Below are positions 11,893-18,831 of a stretch of 64,000 nucleotides of DNA, in pieces. The position numbers were made by a program, and so were the translations under genes. Under the pieces are notes generated by a model that was not told the DNA's origin, did no database searches, and saw only the letters and a list, made by a program, of their open reading frames with translations. The DNA is from a virus (lineage: Duplodnaviria > Caudoviricetes), in IMG/VR virus record IMGVR_UViG_3300010163_000016, positions 1 to 64,000 of that record. The stretch is one strand, 5' to 3'. Within the stretch, counting starts at the first letter, position 1. The number at the start of each line of letters is the position of its first letter.

Positions 11893-12275
11893 ATCAGATC
11901 CTCCAGTTCAACGCCAGTTTCATAACATTCAGCCGCTGGGATCTTCTGAACCATATTTTCTTGTAGAAAGGGCTCATACTGGATGATTGACTGACAAGTG
12001 CAGGTCTTGCCGTTTTCAAAATACGCCTTCCAGCGGTCTTCAATATCTTCTCCATCACCGGTCAGTTCAAAGAAACAGCCTGGATACTGCACGGACAGCT
12101 GCAGCAGATCGGTTTCCCACTCATACCATTTTGCGTACCCGCTGGCATAGACCCTACTCCCTACAGATGCTGTGTCATTAAAAACACAGAGGTTGTCCAG
12201 GTCCTTCAGAAGCTGATCCCGCATGCCGGACATAACATGATTAACCGTCAAATCAAATGTCGTATAGTAGCCCAT
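11889..12275 (-). CDS. Hypothetical protein with DLI tail
   Basis: MGYYT...AKWYEWE...GEDIED; ends VELEDLI. Confidence 0.7.
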   Translation of the reverse strand: MGYYTTFDLTVNHVMSGMRDQLLKDLDNLCVFNDTASVGSRVYASGYAKWYEWETDLLQLSVQYPGCFFELTGDGEDIEDRWKAYFENGKTCTCQSIIQYEPFLQENMVQKIPAAECYETGVELEDLI

Positions 12276-12287
12276 ATTCTTTCTCCC

Positions 12288-12632
12288 TTAGATCAAATCG
12301 TCGATGTTTGGCAGGAGCGCGTCGTCCTTCATCAGCCACTCCTGGAAGGTATACCATGTGTGCTCGTTGACACCGCTGGCATCGGACAGCGTCCCATTTT
12401 CCAGGAGCGTATGCGCCATATCCCGGTTGATCCTGGCGATACAATGGGGAAATTTCTCTCCAAGAGCCCAGCGGAAGCCGGCTGTTTCAGGCATCAGGGC
12501 AAATTGCGGAACGAAACCAAACTTCCCCAGCATGGAATATCCGGCGGCGTGCAGCATGTTAGCCAACTCCAAGCACTCCTCCTGTGTATCGCAGAGGATA
12601 CACTCCCCTCTTTTCAGCAGCATATATCCCAC
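12288..12632 (-). CDS. Small protein with DLI tail (C-[DE]-[TS]-x-EE family)
   Basis: ILCDTQEECLE; ends PNIDDLI. Confidence 0.7.
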   Translation of the reverse strand: MGYMLLKRGECILCDTQEECLELANMLHAAGYSMLGKFGFVPQFALMPETAGFRWALGEKFPHCIARINRDMAHTLLENGTLSDASGVNEHTWYTFQEWLMKDDALLPNIDDLI

Positions 12633-12639
12633 TCCTTTT

Positions 12640-12813
12640 TCAAATCAGCTCCAAAACAATAGGGTAAGGCCATCCGGGTTGCGTCTGGGCCATAACGGCA
12701 TTCCCTCCCGCCACATTGCCTTTGAGAGCAACACCATGGCCTGGACCATTAGGGTCATGACATTTGAAAATCTGGAAGCCGCCGCCCCGGCGGAAAAATT
12801 CATGGATATCCAT
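12640..12813 (-). CDS. 57-aa ORF below the track cutoff
   Basis: AGGAG RBS; MDIHEFFRRGGG...PIVLELI fills the gap between genes. Confidence 0.4.
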   Translation of the reverse strand: MDIHEFFRRGGGFQIFKCHDPNGPGHGVALKGNVAGGNAVMAQTQPGWPYPIVLELI

Positions 12814-12822
12814 ATCGCACTC

Positions 12823-13134
12823 CTATATTAAATCGGAAACGTCCACGAAGGCAGCATGGACCTCCGCCGGGAACAGGTCTGCCGCAGCGATGTGCCTATA
12901 GCCAGTGATTTCCCTGCCGTTTCCATATGCATTGACCCCACGCGACGTCAAAAACAAATATTGCCAGTAACTGCTTCCATCATAGGATCGTTCCCAATTC
13001 GTCCGCGGCACCCCATAGATGGTTTCCATCAGGGGGGCGACGATCAGCGTTTCTTCCTGAGAGTCACACACGACAAAGCTGTAGTCGCCACACCCCTGGA
13101 CGCCGATCGCTTCAATAAGCTGTTCCCTTGTCAA
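12823..13134 (-). CDS. Small protein with DLI tail (C-[DE]-[TS]-x-EE family)
   Basis: FVVCDSQEETL; ends VDVSDLI. Confidence 0.7.
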   Translation of the reverse strand: MTREQLIEAIGVQGCGDYSFVVCDSQEETLIVAPLMETIYGVPRTNWERSYDGSSYWQYLFLTSRGVNAYGNGREITGYRHIAAADLFPAEVHAAFVDVSDLI

Positions 13135-13751
13135 AGCACATCCTCCAAAAGCTCGCAGCGGATATGGAGGCTGACGCTCTGTCCCTGACGCGCTAGCCGC
13201 CGCAGGGAGTTGGCGACGTGATCCGCGTCAAAGGCGCCGCGAAACCGGAGGCTGAATTCCTCCAGGGAGAGCGGCACAGTTTCCTGGGCAGGCCGCGGAT
13301 CCTCCTGGGGCTGGGGCGCTGGTTCCTGTCCGGGATGGAAGAAATTCATCAGGAGTATTCGCTGCCCGTTCGTCATACGGCTGCCGCAGGTGAAAAGGCC
13401 GGAAAGGTCGCAGTCCGCCACAGAGCGGCGGAAGGTGCTGATGGAGACCCCAAAAGCCTCGGCAATAACGCTCATGGTGGCTCCGTATGTATGGGCCAGG
13501 AAAGCGGTATACTGCCGCCGCAGATCGGCGGGCATATCCCGGAATTCCTGGAAGGTCATCGGTTCGCTGAGTTTGTAGCTTTTTACTTCTCCGTTCATTC
13601 TCTCCAGCTCCTTCTTGGTTTTATGGTCGGACGGCAGGGACACATAGGCGGTCCTGCTGCCGCTTCTTCTGCGGCGGGCGCTGTGTCCGGCGGACTTTTT
13701 CTCCCGGATATCGCCGTAGAATACGGACTTGATCTCTCTGGCGTCCATCAT
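13131..13751 (-). CDS. Basic helix-turn-helix protein directly downstream of retron ncRNA unit 3
   Basis: GAAAGGAGG RBS, start MMDAREIK; Arg/Lys-rich N-terminus; MSVIAEAFGVSISTFRRSV HTH-like segment. Confidence 0.7.
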   Translation of the reverse strand: MMDAREIKSVFYGDIREKKSAGHSARRRRSGSRTAYVSLPSDHKTKKELERMNGEVKSYKLSEPMTFQEFRDMPADLRRQYTAFLAHTYGATMSVIAEAFGVSISTFRRSVADCDLSGLFTCGSRMTNGQRILLMNFFHPGQEPAPQPQEDPRPAQETVPLSLEEFSLRFRGAFDADHVANSLRRLARQGQSVSLHIRCELLEDVL

Positions 13752-13791
13752 GCGGGGTGTGTGCCCCTCCTTTCGTAGGTGGATTGATGTT

Positions 13792-13970
13792 GTCTGCGAT
13801 CCATGAGGCCTGTCTTCCTGCCGGGCTGGGCGCCAGCCGGGCAGTGAAGACAGAGCCGAGTGCACGGGCCTGCGCCCGCTTGGCGTTAGCAATTTTTGTC
13901 TGGCTGCGTTGTACGTCCGCGCTGCGCTGGACGTTTCTCCGTGATGCGGAAGAAGATTTTCATCGCAGAC
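13792..13970 (-). ncRNA. Retron-like msr-msd ncRNA, unit 3 (179 nt)
   Basis: 9-bp arms GUCUGCGAU/AUCGCAGAC with opposing Gs (13961, 13801); SL1 abutting SL2 ACGUCC-A-GCG-CAG-CGC-GGACGU (13913-13934); long msd hairpin about 13807-13858. Confidence 0.75.
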
Positions 13971-13975
13971 TGTGT

Positions 13976-14286
13976 TTTGGTACTGCTGGATAGATTTCTT
14001 AGGTCAGGGCGACCTGGTCTCTGAAGGGTACTGTCCTTGAGACTTTGATGGTGATTAACGCTCGGTCGGACGGTTTAAGGCAGTGCAGGGGCTGGATGTC
14101 TGGGGATCAGCTCCGATTCCGGTGAAATTGCCGTGGTTATTTCCTTTATCCGATGAGAGCCTCACGTCCGTGTCTTGTATCGCGCGCCGCGGCAGCCTGG
14201 CCGGCTGCATCCGTCCTCCGGCCGAACCTGTGCTCCCGCGTTCCGCTGGGAGCTTTGCTTGAGCAAGCAAATATACCAGTACCAAA
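13976..14286 (-). ncRNA. Retron-like msr-msd ncRNA, unit 2 (311 nt)
   Basis: 10-bp arms UUUGGUACUG/CAGUACCAAA with opposing Gs (14276, 13986); GUAUA linker, SL1 UUUGCUU/AAGCAAA, SL2 GCUCCC-A-GCG-GAA-CGC-GGGAGC (14232-14253). Confidence 0.8.
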
Positions 14287-14344
14287 TGAGAGTTTTATTT
14301 TTCCGCTGAGAAGCTTTCTGAAGAAGGCCTCTCAATTGACTGAC

Positions 14345-15496
14345 TTATGCGGCGATATCCTGCCGCAGCATTTCCTTGACATCCCCGCCGAACTGCTGCC
14401 CGTAGAGCTCCAACACAGCCTTCATCCAGGCCGGTTCCACCATGGCGGCATAGGAGATGTTTCCCTGGAGCCGGTTCAATTCACCAACAGGTGTGGGAAT
14501 ATGGTTTTGCCGGTCGGTGAGATAATTGAAGATCCAGGCGCGCAGATCCCGCTTCCGCCGGTGGCCCAGCGTGATCTCGTTGTCTTTATTCACCATAAGC
14601 CCCAGCATCCAGTTCCTGCCGGAGCGGGACCCATAGTGGGTCTTCTCCGGCTTGATGCGGAACGGCGCATGGTTCTTTTCCAGGACCCGGTCGATGAGAG
14701 CGACGATCTTCCTGTAGTCAAAATCATACCGGGAACTGATGGTGATATCGTCGGCATAGCGGGTGTAGATATAGCGGTTCTTTTCGTAGTCCCGCAGTGT
14801 GTTGCTCAGCTCGTAGTCAATGGGGATCATGACGGCGTTGGTGAGCAGAGGAGAGATCGGTGTCCCCTGCGGCAGCCCCCCATTCAGGAAACAGAGGCTG
14901 AGGGCCTTTTCCAAAGCTGCTTTCCCCCGCGGGTAGCGGACCACCTCGCTGAAAGGGAAGATCTGGCTGAACTGCGCCATGGTAAACTCCAGGGTAGTGC
15001 TGCCGAAGAAGTTGGAGAAATCTGTTTTCAAATACCATCGGGAGTCGTTAGCCTGGTGCCGCCTGGCGGCGTCCACCGTGCATCTGCCGGTCACGTAGGC
15101 GTAGGCAGCCGTGTGATGGAGTACACGGAAATCCGATTCAAAAATCGATTTCAATATCCGCAGAGCCAGATCCAGATCAGCATGCGGCTGGTCAATGGGG
15201 CGTTTCCCTTTGCCGTTTTTCTTGGGGATCTCATAGTGGCTGTAGAGAGACGCGCGCTCCGCCTGAAACAGCGGCTCAAACTGCTGATTAAACTGCTCCA
15301 GACGGCGGATCAAAGCAGCCACGTCCAGCTGCCGGTACAGCTTATCGCTGGGCCAACTGATCAAATAGGTGCGGGTGGCGCCCTTTACATTTTTCCAAGG
15401 GGGGGCCGGGACGGCCCGGTCCAGATCTCCAAAAATCAGCTCGTCCAGAGAGAACTGATGGGATGCAGGCATCTGCTTGACCGTTACATATGGCAT
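14345..15496 (-). CDS. Retron-type reverse transcriptase
   Basis: IPKKNGKGKRPI, AARRH (region X-like), LKTDFSNFF, LPQGTPISPLLTN, YTRYADD, MLGL at the VTG position; no maturase, HNH or nitrilase domain. Confidence 0.9.
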   Translation of the reverse strand: MPYVTVKQMPASHQFSLDELIFGDLDRAVPAPPWKNVKGATRTYLISWPSDKLYRQLDVAALIRRLEQFNQQFEPLFQAERASLYSHYEIPKKNGKGKRPIDQPHADLDLALRILKSIFESDFRVLHHTAAYAYVTGRCTVDAARRHQANDSRWYLKTDFSNFFGSTTLEFTMAQFSQIFPFSEVVRYPRGKAALEKALSLCFLNGGLPQGTPISPLLTNAVMIPIDYELSNTLRDYEKNRYIYTRYADDITISSRYDFDYRKIVALIDRVLEKNHAPFRIKPEKTHYGSRSGRNWMLGLMVNKDNEITLGHRRKRDLRAWIFNYLTDRQNHIPTPVGELNRLQGNISYAAMVEPAWMKAVLELYGQQFGGDVKEMLRQDIAA

Positions 15497-15526
15497 AGGG
15501 TTTCTCCTTTCTTGAAAGTTTTGTTC

Positions 15527-15801
15527 TGTGATGTTCCTGATACGATGATGAGTCGTACAGCTAGGGCTCTCGTATTGGCCAACACAATCGTGATTTGGTC
15601 TGCGAATGGCATTTCATGGCTCTGGGTCTCCTTGCGGCTGGGGCGTTTGCCGATATAGTGTCGGTACGCTTGGTTATTGATCCTTCTCACGCCATCGCGA
15701 CTATACGCGACAGCGTAGTCTGGTCCATATTTTCCCGCCGCCGAATTCTTGCTCCCGCGTTCCGCTGGGAGCCGGTTTTGACAACCGTATACAACATCAC
15801 A
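15527..15801 (-). ncRNA. Retron-like msr-msd ncRNA, unit 1 (275 nt)
   Basis: 9-bp arms UGUGAUGUU/AACAUCACA with opposing Gs (15792, 15536); GUAUA linker, SL1 CGGUU/AACCG, SL2 identical to unit 2 (15751-15772); canonical position upstream of RT. Confidence 0.85.
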
Positions 15802-15827
15802 AATTAAATTTCTTGATGATACGCTGC

Positions 15828-16505
15828 TCAGAACGCATCCAGGGAGGGCAGGAATGCGTCCGTCTGAATGGTACGGCGGAAGGTCTTCCCTTCCGATTTG
15901 ACGAAGTTCATGAAATTGCTCACCGCCAGGGAGCAGATCAGATAGACTGTCGTGCAGACGGAGAGCGCCGTGTTGCAGGCGGTGTGGGGCGTTTCCGCGG
16001 CGGCCTGTTCGTCCGTGAAGTCCATAGTGCCGATGAAATTTCGAACGCTCAGGCTGTCGTGCCAGTCAGCCAGATAATGCTGGGCGTCGGTGAGGCTGAT
16101 GCGGACGTCGCTCATGACTGCAATGGATGGGTTCAGCTTATGCTGCTTAGCAATCGCTTTTCGGGTGGCGATACTATCCACGCAGAGGAATACGCACCCG
16201 GAGAGCGGCTGATCCTCATACCGTTCCGGGACAAGCCGGATCTGTTCCCCAATCCCGCTGTTGATCTCCGTCAGGATCTCCCCCAGCGCGTCCACCTTCT
16301 TTTTCCCGACATCCTTCTCCCGGAACATCTGATTGGCGATGTTGTGGGGCTCCACCATGTCGTCGTCGTACAGGACAAAATCCGTCAGGCCGGCATGGGC
16401 CAGCATGACGGCAATGGTGCTTCCAACCGCCCCGCATCCGATGATATGGATGCGGCCCCGGACCATGGACGGATGAAAGAATCCTTCCATTTTAATGAGA
16501 TCCAT
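15828..16505 (-). CDS. ThiF/E1-like adenylyltransferase (Ubl-activating enzyme)
   Basis: IHIIGCGAVGS, YDDDMVEPHNIANQ, CVDS; candidate catalytic Cys in TPHTACN; no Zn CxxC pairs. Confidence 0.9.
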   Translation of the reverse strand: MDLIKMEGFFHPSMVRGRIHIIGCGAVGSTIAVMLAHAGLTDFVLYDDDMVEPHNIANQMFREKDVGKKKVDALGEILTEINSGIGEQIRLVPERYEDQPLSGCVFLCVDSIATRKAIAKQHKLNPSIAVMSDVRISLTDAQHYLADWHDSLSVRNFIGTMDFTDEQAAAETPHTACNTALSVCTTVYLICSLAVSNFMNFVKSEGKTFRRTIQTDAFLPSLDAF

Positions 16506-16507
16506 AT

Positions 16508-17377
16508 TTAAATCCCCCTTCCCGCGCAGGACACCCAGCGTCCTGCCTCGTCATAGCAGCCATATGGTTCGTCGTCCGCATCATATCGGTCGCCATAAGG
16601 GTCCTCGTCGTAAAGATCGTTGGCCCATTTCTTTTGGGAAGCTCCTGTCGTGGGGCTGGCGGTCTTGCCCGCAGTCCCAGCTGTGGAGGCGGGCGGCGTA
16701 TAGCTGCCGGGGTAGGAAGTCCGCCCGCCGCCGGAGGTGGTCGTCTGATATGTCTGGACAACCATTTCCTGTGCGGACTTCAGGAACGGCTCCGCCTGGA
16801 AAGTTTCATCCCCGATGTAGACGTCAACGTCAGCGGTCTCATACATGACGCCGAACTTGTTGTCATAGAGCCGGATGAACAGCTTGCCCGGCTTGTTCAT
16901 GATAAAGAAGAGATAGAAATCCCCGGGCTGCAGCATGTTCGTCAGATCCCGCTGGAGATCGTCGTCGGTGGCGCTGGAAAACGTATCCATATTGACATGG
17001 CTGTGGCCGTGGAAGCGGATCTTGCGGAGCGTTTCTGTGGGGAACCGGTCCAGCCACGCGCCGTGCTTGATCTCATCCGTTGTGATATTGGCCCCGGTGA
17101 CACGCTGTGGGTAGACCATGACATCCTCCAGCAGGAACCGGTCATCCGCCTCCGGATCCCGGCAGCAAACGCCCTGCCAGCCGACTTCGCTGGTGAAGTG
17201 CTGAATGAGCAGCTGCATCTTGAGCCAGGCCATCGGGGCGACAACCACTTTTACCCGCCTGGGCGCGCCGGCGGGAAGCGGCATTCCGCTCAGGACGCGG
17301 GGATCGAACTTTCCCGCCAGGAGGCGGGCGGCCTTCAGGTAATCAATGGCCTCCTGGTGCAATGTAAAGTTTTTCAT
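16508..17377 (-). CDS. JAB/MPN metallopeptidase (Ubl processing/deconjugation)
   Basis: SEVGW Glu and HGHSHVNMDTFSSATDD JAMM motif; low-complexity C-terminal tail. Confidence 0.85.
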   Translation of the reverse strand: MKNFTLHQEAIDYLKAARLLAGKFDPRVLSGMPLPAGAPRRVKVVVAPMAWLKMQLLIQHFTSEVGWQGVCCRDPEADDRFLLEDVMVYPQRVTGANITTDEIKHGAWLDRFPTETLRKIRFHGHSHVNMDTFSSATDDDLQRDLTNMLQPGDFYLFFIMNKPGKLFIRLYDNKFGVMYETADVDVYIGDETFQAEPFLKSAQEMVVQTYQTTTSGGGRTSYPGSYTPPASTAGTAGKTASPTTGASQKKWANDLYDEDPYGDRYDADDEPYGCYDEAGRWVSCAGRGI

Positions 17378-17400
17378 ACGCTTTCTCCTTCTCCTTCTGC

Positions 17401-18831
17401 TCACAGCGTTTCCAAATACTCCCGGCAGGTCATTGCGGACCCATCGCGCAGCAACAGACACTTCTGCTGACTGGAGCATAACCAATTCGAGAACTTGCTG
17501 ATGGCGCTGTCGTGGATGGTGATCTGGCTGGTGGCCGCAACCGTTACTGCCACGGCGCCGGCGTAGTCTCCGGCAATCAGGGCTTCGTTCAGGTTGTCAG
17601 CGTGGGAACCCCAGCAGCCGTACCCCATCAGATGGGGATTCATGAGATAGTCCTTCAGCTCCGGAATCAGAGGTCTGTCCTCATGGATGGTGATCCCGAT
17701 CTGCTCATCCGTATAGCGGAGGTCGAACGCCGCCGCCATCCGAATTCGCACCGTCCGCTCCAAAAAGATTTCCTTCAAAAGCTGCTGGAACTTTCTTTTG
17801 GGAATATCATGGTTTTCGCAGCCATCATAGAGATAGCCGCTCAGCGTTTTGATATAGCTTTCAGCCTCCTGATCGTCCCAATAGGTCATCTCGCTCTTGA
17901 CCCAATAGGAAAATCCGCTTTGGGTCTGTCCATCGAACACCAGAGCCTTATTCGTCAGAAAGTATGTCAACAGCTCCTGATCCGCGCTTTCGTCCTGTCC
18001 GGCGGCATAGCGCAGCCCGTACAGCTCGATCATCTTCCTGTCGCGTTGGGCGGTCGTTGCCCGAATTCTGTCCTGGTACGTCCGCAGATCTCTTGTCAGA
18101 TTCTCGACGGTCTTTTCAACCGTCTTGAGCCGCTGTTCCCTCGCCCTGCCCGTGAACTTAGCCAGCTCCCGGCGGATCGTGGCGCCGCGGAAATCGTGGC
18201 CGGCCTCAAACCGGCTCATGATTTCCCGGTAAGTGTCCAGAGACACGGCTTTGGCCGAAGACAGGCAGCGTATCATTGCCTCCTCATCCTCCGTGAAGGG
18301 ATGCTCCAAGAAGAAGTTTTTGAAATAGCTGCGCATGAAGACCTGAATGATATGCCATTTCCTGGCGTTCATGCTGTCCGTGAAGATGACAGTATTGGCA
18401 ATATCATCCTGGATAAAAGTCAGGATATACGAAGGAGTTTTCCCATCATGGAACCGGCTGTAGATCCGCTCATGGAACTCATGCCCCGGGACGCCGGTTT
18501 TGCGGATGGCGTCCGCCACGTGAGCCATAGTTTCATGATCGGCAGAAATGCTCACTACAGTGACGGTGTTCCGGGCGGAGACGTCCGCCAGATCCAGCAG
18601 GCCGGACGCCGGGTTCTTTCCTTTGCCGGAAGGAAGCTGGTCCACCTGCCGCAGGCGGAGATATGCCTCCTCCCCGGCGGGGAGACGGGAAGGCAGCAGC
18701 GCACGCATGGTCGCCAGCCAGCTCACGTCCTCGTTATAAGTATCACAGTGGATATGGGGAAAAATTTCATCGGCAACGTCTGAGGCGAGACGCACCTGAT
18801 CTTTTGTGATCGTGCCAGCGATCATGTTCAC
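17401..18831 (-). CDS. Large protein with coiled coil and C-terminal E2-like domain
   Basis: NPHLMGYGCWG resembles the prokaryotic E2 PH...C motif; coiled coil around REQRLKTVEK; sits between Ubl and JAB. Confidence 0.6.
   Translation of the reverse strand: MNMIAGTITKDQVRLASDVADEIFPHIHCDTYNEDVSWLATMRALLPSRLPAGEEAYLRLRQVDQLPSGKGKNPASGLLDLADVSARNTVTVVSISADHETMAHVADAIRKTGVPGHEFHERIYSRFHDGKTPSYILTFIQDDIANTVIFTDSMNARKWHIIQVFMRSYFKNFFLEHPFTEDEEAMIRCLSSAKAVSLDTYREIMSRFEAGHDFRGATIRRELAKFTGRAREQRLKTVEKTVENLTRDLRTYQDRIRATTAQRDRKMIELYGLRYAAGQDESADQELLTYFLTNKALVFDGQTQSGFSYWVKSEMTYWDDQEAESYIKTLSGYLYDGCENHDIPKRKFQQLLKEIFLERTVRIRMAAAFDLRYTDEQIGITIHEDRPLIPELKDYLMNPHLMGYGCWGSHADNLNEALIAGDYAGAVAVTVAATSQITIHDSAISKFSNWLCSSQQKCLLLRDGSAMTCREYLETL

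Follow-up and report, generated by a model that had tools for sequence, protein, structure and literature searches.

A bulged, triloop-capped hairpin shared by three retron-like RNA units is a candidate handle for a phage reverse transcriptase

The DNA analysed here (the window) comprises the first 64 kb of a phage genome of 83,771 bp, and contains a retron-type reverse transcriptase (RT) gene accompanied by three retron-like noncoding RNA (ncRNA) units, with all genes around the units lying on the minus strand (Table 1). Each unit is arranged in the same order: an a1 repeat, a guanosine, a variable stem-loop (SL1), a second stem-loop (SL2), a longer structured template, and an a2 repeat. Classical retrons comprise one RT and one template RNA.

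Table 1. Features of the RT locus, in coordinates of the window
Feature	Position	Strand	Remarks
RT (P0001), retron-type, 383 aa	14345..15496	minus	PADLOC, NCBIfam, PDB and fold matches
RT residues 1-80	15257-15496		N-terminal extension
Upstream flank with E1/ThiF-like gene	15828-18831	minus	E1/ThiF-like gene directly upstream of RT
253-aa ORF	13131-13892		weak HTH_23 match
In-frame ATG of the 253-aa ORF	13751		GGAGG box
Unit U	15525..15803	minus	upstream of RT, between E1/ThiF gene and RT; unit 2 of the sequence-only reading
U, a1	15803-15793	minus
U, candidate priming G	15795 or 15792	minus	15795 is the family column
U, SL1	15787-15773	minus
U, SL2	15772-15751	minus	GCUCCC-A-GCG-GAA-CGC-GGGAGC
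U, a2	15535-15525	minus
Unit D1	13976..14286	minus	directly downstream of RT; unit 1 of the sequence-only reading
D1, a1	14286-14277	minus
D1, candidate priming G	14277/14276	minus
D1, SL1	14271-14254	minus
D1, SL2	14253-14232	minus	GCUCCC-A-GCG-GAA-CGC-GGGAGC, same as in U
D1, a2	13985-13976	minus
Unit D2	13792..13970	minus	5 nt past D1, in tandem; unit 3 of the sequence-only reading
D2, a1	13970-13962	minus
D2, candidate priming G	13961	minus
D2, SL1	13954-13935	minus
D2, SL2	13934-13913	minus	ACGUCC-A-GCG-CAG-CGC-GGACGU
D2, long template hairpin	about 13857-13807	minus
D2, a2	13800-13792	minus

By sequence and by fold, the RT belongs to the retron clade. The best of its PADLOC matches is RT_II-A (4e-52), and the best 25 of 77 matches are all retron RT models; NCBIfam retron_St85_RT (NF038233) is matched with 187.8 bits, under the cut-off of 235. 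Sequence matches in the PDB are retron RTs, with the Ec83 RT (9e8z_H, 3e-23) and the Ec78 RT nearest, and an AlphaFold2 model of the RT (pLDDT 84) finds only retron RTs among its fold matches ranked 1–11, the best having TM scores of 0.72–0.79 normalised to the target. Homologues of the RT number in the thousands; the closest relatives show 85% and 84% identity (P0002 and P0003), and the loci compared below reach 60–61%.

The RT carries YADD, and departs from the strict form of both retron signature motifs. Opposite NAKIH of the Ec83 RT, in region X, it has AARRH in place of NAxxH, of which only the histidine is kept (H147, invariant in the family); the consensus of 29 homologues is DAVKRH. 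In region Y it has MLG (NWMLGLMV) instead of VTG, as the sequence-only reading had noted, and MLG falls column for column on the VTG of the Ec83 RT and also aligns with that of the Ec78 RT. The family consensus at this position is NLG, with L298 and G299 invariant among the 29 homologues. Because the RT lacks strict NAxxH and VTG, retron-RT-like behaviour is not certain. The first 80 or so residues form an N-terminal extension that is conserved in the family and that solved retron RTs lack; the prediction shows a small beta/alpha unit in which residues 23–36 are a linker of low confidence.

The genes neighbouring the RT are the E1/ThiF gene, ORFs of unknown function, and one for an HTH protein; no PADLOC or Pfam effector adjoins it. 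Homologues of the E1/ThiF-like gene occur in 125 of 160 related loci, those of a 325-aa ORF beside it in 102/160, and those of a 476-aa ORF in 25/160. Since the E1/ThiF gene and its neighbour ORFs recur, the RT and its RNAs are syntenic with a module of the ubiquitin-like-conjugation type, although, the loci being those of related phages, the synteny does not count as separate evidence that the two are functionally linked.

The a1/a2 repeats that close retron ncRNAs are present in all three units, with a1 arms of 9–11 nt pairing with a2 arms 180–310 nt downstream. In D1, an inverted repeat (I2) was detected, and the 9 nt preceding the guanosine have a 9/9 complement 311 nt downstream; in D2, a1 and a2 match at 9/9 positions. 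Fold z-scores were −3.5 for U, −2.7 for D1, and −7.5 for D2, and the fold of U includes the closing a1/a2 stem. An Rfam scan of window positions 12000–18000 matched no family at E ≤ 1.

SL2 has a common plan in the three units, consisting of a 6-bp outer stem, a bulged A, a GCG/CGC inner stem, and a 3-nt loop. Re-reading the minus strand confirmed the hairpin sequences and positions given in the sequence-only reading, including its statement that the bulged A and GCG/CGC are kept in all three. The 29/33-nt match that it reported between 14221–14253 and 15740–15772 is likewise correct, and a repeat search extends it to 40 nt at 83%. Its description of the D2 hairpin as having four outer pairs swapped with pairing kept holds for the pairing and overcounts the swaps: relative to U and D1, the outer stem of D2 has double changes at three of the six pairs (G-C to A-U, U-A to G-C, and C-G to U-A), the second outer pair being C-G in all.

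The core AGCGNNNCGC is not enriched, with 12 matches in the window vs. 10.4 expected, and therefore the significance of the hairpins rests on their flanking complementarity. Across both strands of the genome there are 14 AGCGNNNCGC cores, and 6/6 complementary flanks are found only in the SL2 of U, D1, and D2; the others have at most 4/6. About 0.003 hairpins of this architecture are expected by chance in the 83.8-kb genome vs. three observed, which speaks against chance palindromes, and all three lie in the RT locus and share the strand of the RT gene.

A wider family was assembled from 80 loci in genome bins, 80 in IMG/VR viral contigs (mostly 60–140 kb), and 80 in metagenomes. Searching IMG/VR with the single RT protein gave no match, and a query made from an RT alignment retrieved relatives. 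A regular-expression pass found hairpins of the 6 + bulge + 3 + triloop form beside several RTs, with differing stem sequences and, in one locus (L139), at three places. A covariance model (R1) was built from 16 hairpin sites, and a second (R2) from the first-round matches; SL1 was left out of both because its MAFFT alignment was inconsistent. R1 gave 65 + 160 = 225 matches at E ≤ 1, and R2 gave 74 + 185 = 259 matches at E ≤ 0.01, adjoining homologous RTs in gut-phage contigs. Run on 133 kb of distant retron loci (L059–L080, 26–35% RT identity) and on the other 20 kb of the genome (L161), R1 gave no match.

The matches occupy set positions around the RT, clustering 300–400 nt before its start, just past its stop, and about 300 nt beyond that. 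No protein other than the RT goes with SL2 units in all the loci searched. At least three units are present in 42 of the 80 viral loci (R2 match table). In one IMG/VR phage contig (L111:2004-6056), seven SL2 units reach E ≤ 0.01; a single one precedes the RT and the other six are spread over 2.4 kb downstream of it, so that arrays may greatly exceed three units. The template RNAs thus found go with a large family of retron-type RTs in gut phages of 60–140 kb.

Family units share the layout of those in the window, with a median length of 298 nt. In the alignment of 215 units, the column that closes a1 on its 3′ side holds a G in 212; this conserved guanosine ending a1 stands where the branching or priming G of a retron is expected, and is a candidate for the priming role. 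SL2 starts 16–29 nt (median 21) past it. For the 9 nt before the G, a perfect complement lies within 450 nt downstream in 106/199 units vs. 2/995 shuffled arms, and a complement of at least 8/9 in 161/199. Synthesis of msDNA by the RT from these units is a prediction from their sequence.

The three units of the window were scored by the same models, with E-values of 2.9e-7 (R1) and 2.9e-5 (R2) for U, 5e-7 (R1) for D1, and 9e-6 (R1) and 4.3e-3 (R2) for D2. At 46–55% GC they are G+C-rich outliers in an A+T-rich ncRNA family of about 30–45%, and it is owing to this richness that they score lowest with R2 (E of 3e-5 to 4e-3) with SL2 perfectly paired. A relative with 60% RT identity has, at L163:4085-4160, a third downstream unit with an apparent variant of SL2 (5 bp, bulged A, 2 bp, and a tetraloop) followed by the family tail AACAAAUUUG, which the covariance model missed. 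All three units of L163 have a bulged A, as do those of the window.

Pairing in SL2 is maintained throughout the family. Among 74 distinct sequences (E ≤ 0.01), 666 of 666 pair cells are standard pairs, in alignments that the covariance model had fitted to its structure, a procedure that favours pairing; two first-round alignments gave 100% and 99.8% paired cells. Double changes occur at seven of the nine pairs, with 141 compensatory cells in the 74 sequences, and 0 of 500 shuffles reach the observed covariation score. When the 3′ partner is slid by 1–3 columns as a control, pairing falls to 31–46%. The fit has no bearing on the restriction of the matches to one strand, their constant placement around the RT, the absence of matches in the negative controls, or the variety of pair types. 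The proposal that structure rather than sequence is selected, made originally from the three hairpins of one genome, is thus strongly supported by the 99.8–100% pairing, the compensatory changes at 7/9 pairs, and the shuffles.

G.U pairs make up 101 of the 666 cells, and the opposite strand would have A.C mismatches in their place; the helix therefore forms on the RT-sense strand only, either as RNA or as single-stranded DNA of the same sense. This bears on the idea that the hairpins function in DNA form or through the opposite strand, for example to terminate plus-strand transcription, to serve as recombination sites, or to bind protein as palindromes. In its favour one could cite the plus-strand complement of the D1 hairpin, which is followed by TTTGCTTG and was flagged as terminator-like. 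All 259 R2 matches (and all R1 matches) lie on the RT-sense strand, the G.U cells would be unpaired on the other strand and do not fit the symmetry of duplex DNA, no plus-strand genes lie nearby to be terminated, and the T-rich tail is present at one of the three copies only. We consider such a role, or an origin of the hairpins as chance palindromes, very improbable. The terminator reading was rejected: the scan for terminators gave no minus-strand terminator-like site in 13600–16000, and a single plus-strand match overlapping SL2.

Conservation within SL2 is uneven. Outer pair 2 is an invariant C-G and pair 1 is mostly G.U, and the basal G.U, C-G, and U-A pairs together with the tail AACAAnUUGA are conserved family-wide whatever the RT divergence. 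The inner stem of 3 bp and the loop of 3 nt are present in 140 of 150 distinct units. A bulge is found in 96% of units, its letter being C in 81, U in 37, A in 23, and G in 3, with none in 6, and the 5′ side of the inner stem reads GCC, GCU, GCG, GUU, GGU, or others. What the family conserves is the position of the bulge and the triloop. Since the bulge letter and the inner stem vary, the bulged A and GCG/CGC are traits of this genome and not of the family, and the sequence-only reading went too far in taking them for the determinant: the letter is mixed and the inner stem covaries.

The units of a locus resemble one another in some parts more than in others. In 21 loci with RTs less than 80% identical, the identity of the apex (bulge, inner stem, and loop) was 0.80 within loci vs. 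0.51 after label shuffling, and that of the tail past SL2 was 0.73 vs. 0.56, values that 0 of 2000 shuffles reached in either case. The a1 arms gave 0.57 vs. 0.55, which 289 of 2000 shuffles reached (not significant). Another comparison of units within loci showed a similar trend. Apex and tail are thus homogenised among the units of one locus, and a1 and SL1 are not.

The nearest relatives compared, L162 and L163 (60% RT identity), have orthologous U and D1 units with the same leaders, GUGAUGUUGUAUACGG and GGUAUAUUUGC. Their apex is A-GGC-AAA-GCC in both U and D1, whereas that of the window is A-GCG-GAA-CGC in both; because the U and D1 apexes agree within each genome and differ between genomes, the two units of each genome have undergone parallel change in the apex. 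Such a change would be expected if one trans-acting reader served both units, and local gene conversion could give the same picture.

Indeed, the likeness of the hairpins might reflect unit duplication with local gene conversion rather than a common reader, SL2 then being a generic stable stem inherited with the unit. The 40-nt stretch shared by U and D1 reaches 18 nt past the hairpin, SL2 and tail are nearly identical between U and D1 of L162 and L163, and across loci the tail is homogenised along with the apex. This explanation is nonetheless quite unlikely in our estimate. What D2 has in common with U and D1 is limited to the apex and two pairs, and still D2 is perfectly paired by way of three double changes; the compensatory changes at 7/9 pairs of a fully paired family stem require selection on structure; and the neighbouring a1 and SL1 show no homogenisation within loci.

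Taken together, we regard SL2 as probably the second msr stem-loop of retron-like template RNAs and a shared handle for the single RT; by analogy with solved retrons, it is the best candidate for the element by which the RT could grip each RNA. In a type I-A retron, an msr stem-loop serves as a handle for the RT thumb (PMC12475279). In the solved complexes of Eco1 (Ec86) and Eco2 (Ec67), the loop of the recognition stem-loop is held by the RT thumb, its triloop stacking onto a thumb histidine, with the middle base on this conserved residue (PMC12405507). Like SL2, the Eco1/Eco2 stem-loop is short, has a 3-nt loop, and lies 3′ of the priming guanosine in the msr, being in Eco1 also the second stem-loop past the priming G; SL2 has the corresponding features in the family, as a structure-conserved stem-loop with a triloop 3′ of the candidate priming G. 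Unlike the Eco1/Eco2 element, SL2 has a conserved single-nucleotide 5′ bulge that splits the stem into 6 + 3 bp, and one hairpin is common to three template RNAs per RT (up to seven in relatives). The two have no sequence similarity.

The sequence-only reading had named SL2 as the determinant read by region Y and the thumb of the RT, and had tied this to MLG in place of VTG. Reading by the thumb is plausible on three counts: the fixed spacing of 16–29 nt past a priming-type G, the resemblance of the triloop to the Eco1/Eco2 recognition stem-loop (PMC12405507), and the evolution of the apex in concert within a locus, which a1 and SL1 do not share. Region Y has been described as guiding the RT to its msr (PMC7736814). 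The link to MLG does not stand, because [M/N]LG is constant in the family while the SL2 apex varies, and because in the type I-A structure the VTG motif lies beside the priming guanosine and the clamp, off the handle stem-loop (PMC12475279).

By this analogy, the alpha-helical thumb of the RT (residues about 312–383) probably grips the SL2 of every unit, which would let the RT start from the conserved G on three distinct templates and copy each of them. The lineage of L111, L021, and L007 has GCG-NUU-CGC and GGU-NUA-ACC apexes side by side in units of the same locus; an RT serving both must therefore tolerate variation in apex sequence, and any reading would be of shape. Recognition would thus probably depend on shape (the bulge position and the triloop) and on the invariant basal C-G pair, not on the bulged A or GCG/CGC.

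SL2 could instead be a structural ncRNA element with a purpose other than RT recognition: it might help the msr to fold or make it more stable, halt reverse transcription, or dock another phage protein, for example from the conserved E1/JAB-type module nearby or the downstream HTH protein. Covariation proves a structure and not which reader it has, the basal pairs and tail are conserved regardless of RT divergence, the E1/ThiF gene stands upstream of the RT in most of the loci, and two apex types can occur under one RT. We judge a non-RT role unlikely, given that the position and triloop of SL2 match the RT-bound stem-loops of solved retrons (PMC12405507 and PMC12475279), that only the RT accompanies SL2 units in every locus searched, and that an HTH neighbour occurs in just 1 of 160 loci.

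Building on SL2 as an RT handle, a more specific and tentative possibility, which we hold to be somewhat doubtful, is that SL2 serves as a locus-specific address tag whose bulge, inner stem, and loop co-evolve with the RT of the same phage. One RT would then serve three to seven templates and ignore the RNAs of co-infecting related phages or host retrons.

The system does not fall readily into a known retron type. The nearest solved RTs by sequence and fold are those of type I-A (Ec78/Eco7 and Ec83, with the SL-1 handle); in type I-A, a single ncRNA is accompanied by an RT with strict NAxxH and VTG and by SMC-ATPase and HNH effectors, and neither an SMC-type ATPase nor an HNH nuclease gene lies beside the RT here. 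Type II-A (St85/Sen2; Mestre et al. 2020, PMC7736814) provides the best profile matches, RT_II-A and retron_St85_RT. In contrast to type II-A, the present RT scores below the St85 cut-off, has no NDT-like effector or neighbour, is phage-borne, carries the extra ~80 N-terminal residues, and is accompanied by several ncRNAs, some of them downstream of its gene. The lack of a recognisable toxin effector beside the RT is shared with stand-alone (msr-msd)-RT cassettes (PMC7736814). Because its motifs are non-strict, no effector is recognisable, it is phage-borne, and it has arrays of 3–7 RNAs, we place it in a divergent retron-related clade rather than in a defined type.

The closest parallel to the arrangement is synthetic. 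Engineered “multitron” arrays (bioRxiv 10.1101/2023.07.17.549397) likewise combine one RT with tandem msr-msd units that have the same msr recognition part and different templates; multitrons are synthetic copies of one natural msr, whereas the units described here are natural, with diverged a1, SL1, and template, and only SL2 and the tail alike. The literature searched for natural retrons with several ncRNAs gave only these engineered tandem arrays, and the present system would be the natural counterpart of such multi-msd designs.

To our knowledge, how an RT chooses its RNA is known from a few solved complexes only. The 22-nt hairpin is the part kept alike among the otherwise diverged RNAs of each locus, in hundreds of phages, and SL2 is accordingly a sharply defined and testable candidate recognition element of a natural multi-template retron. 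If the handle is sufficient and locus-specific, it would be useful for multiplexed retron-based DNA production and editing; if the address-tag reading is true, the locus would amount to an orthogonal multi-template retron of natural origin, and transplanting its handle could serve to programme the multiplexed production of single-stranded DNA. The locus also illustrates that RTs without textbook NAxxH and VTG can still sit amid retron-style RNAs, a clade that motif-based surveys would miss.

The 253-aa ORF downstream of the array overlaps unit D2 by its 5′ end. Its sole homologue aligns from residue 53 onwards, and an in-frame ATG with a GGAGG box is present further in (Table 1), so that the HTH gene probably begins at this ATG (about 206 aa), just past the a2 of D2.
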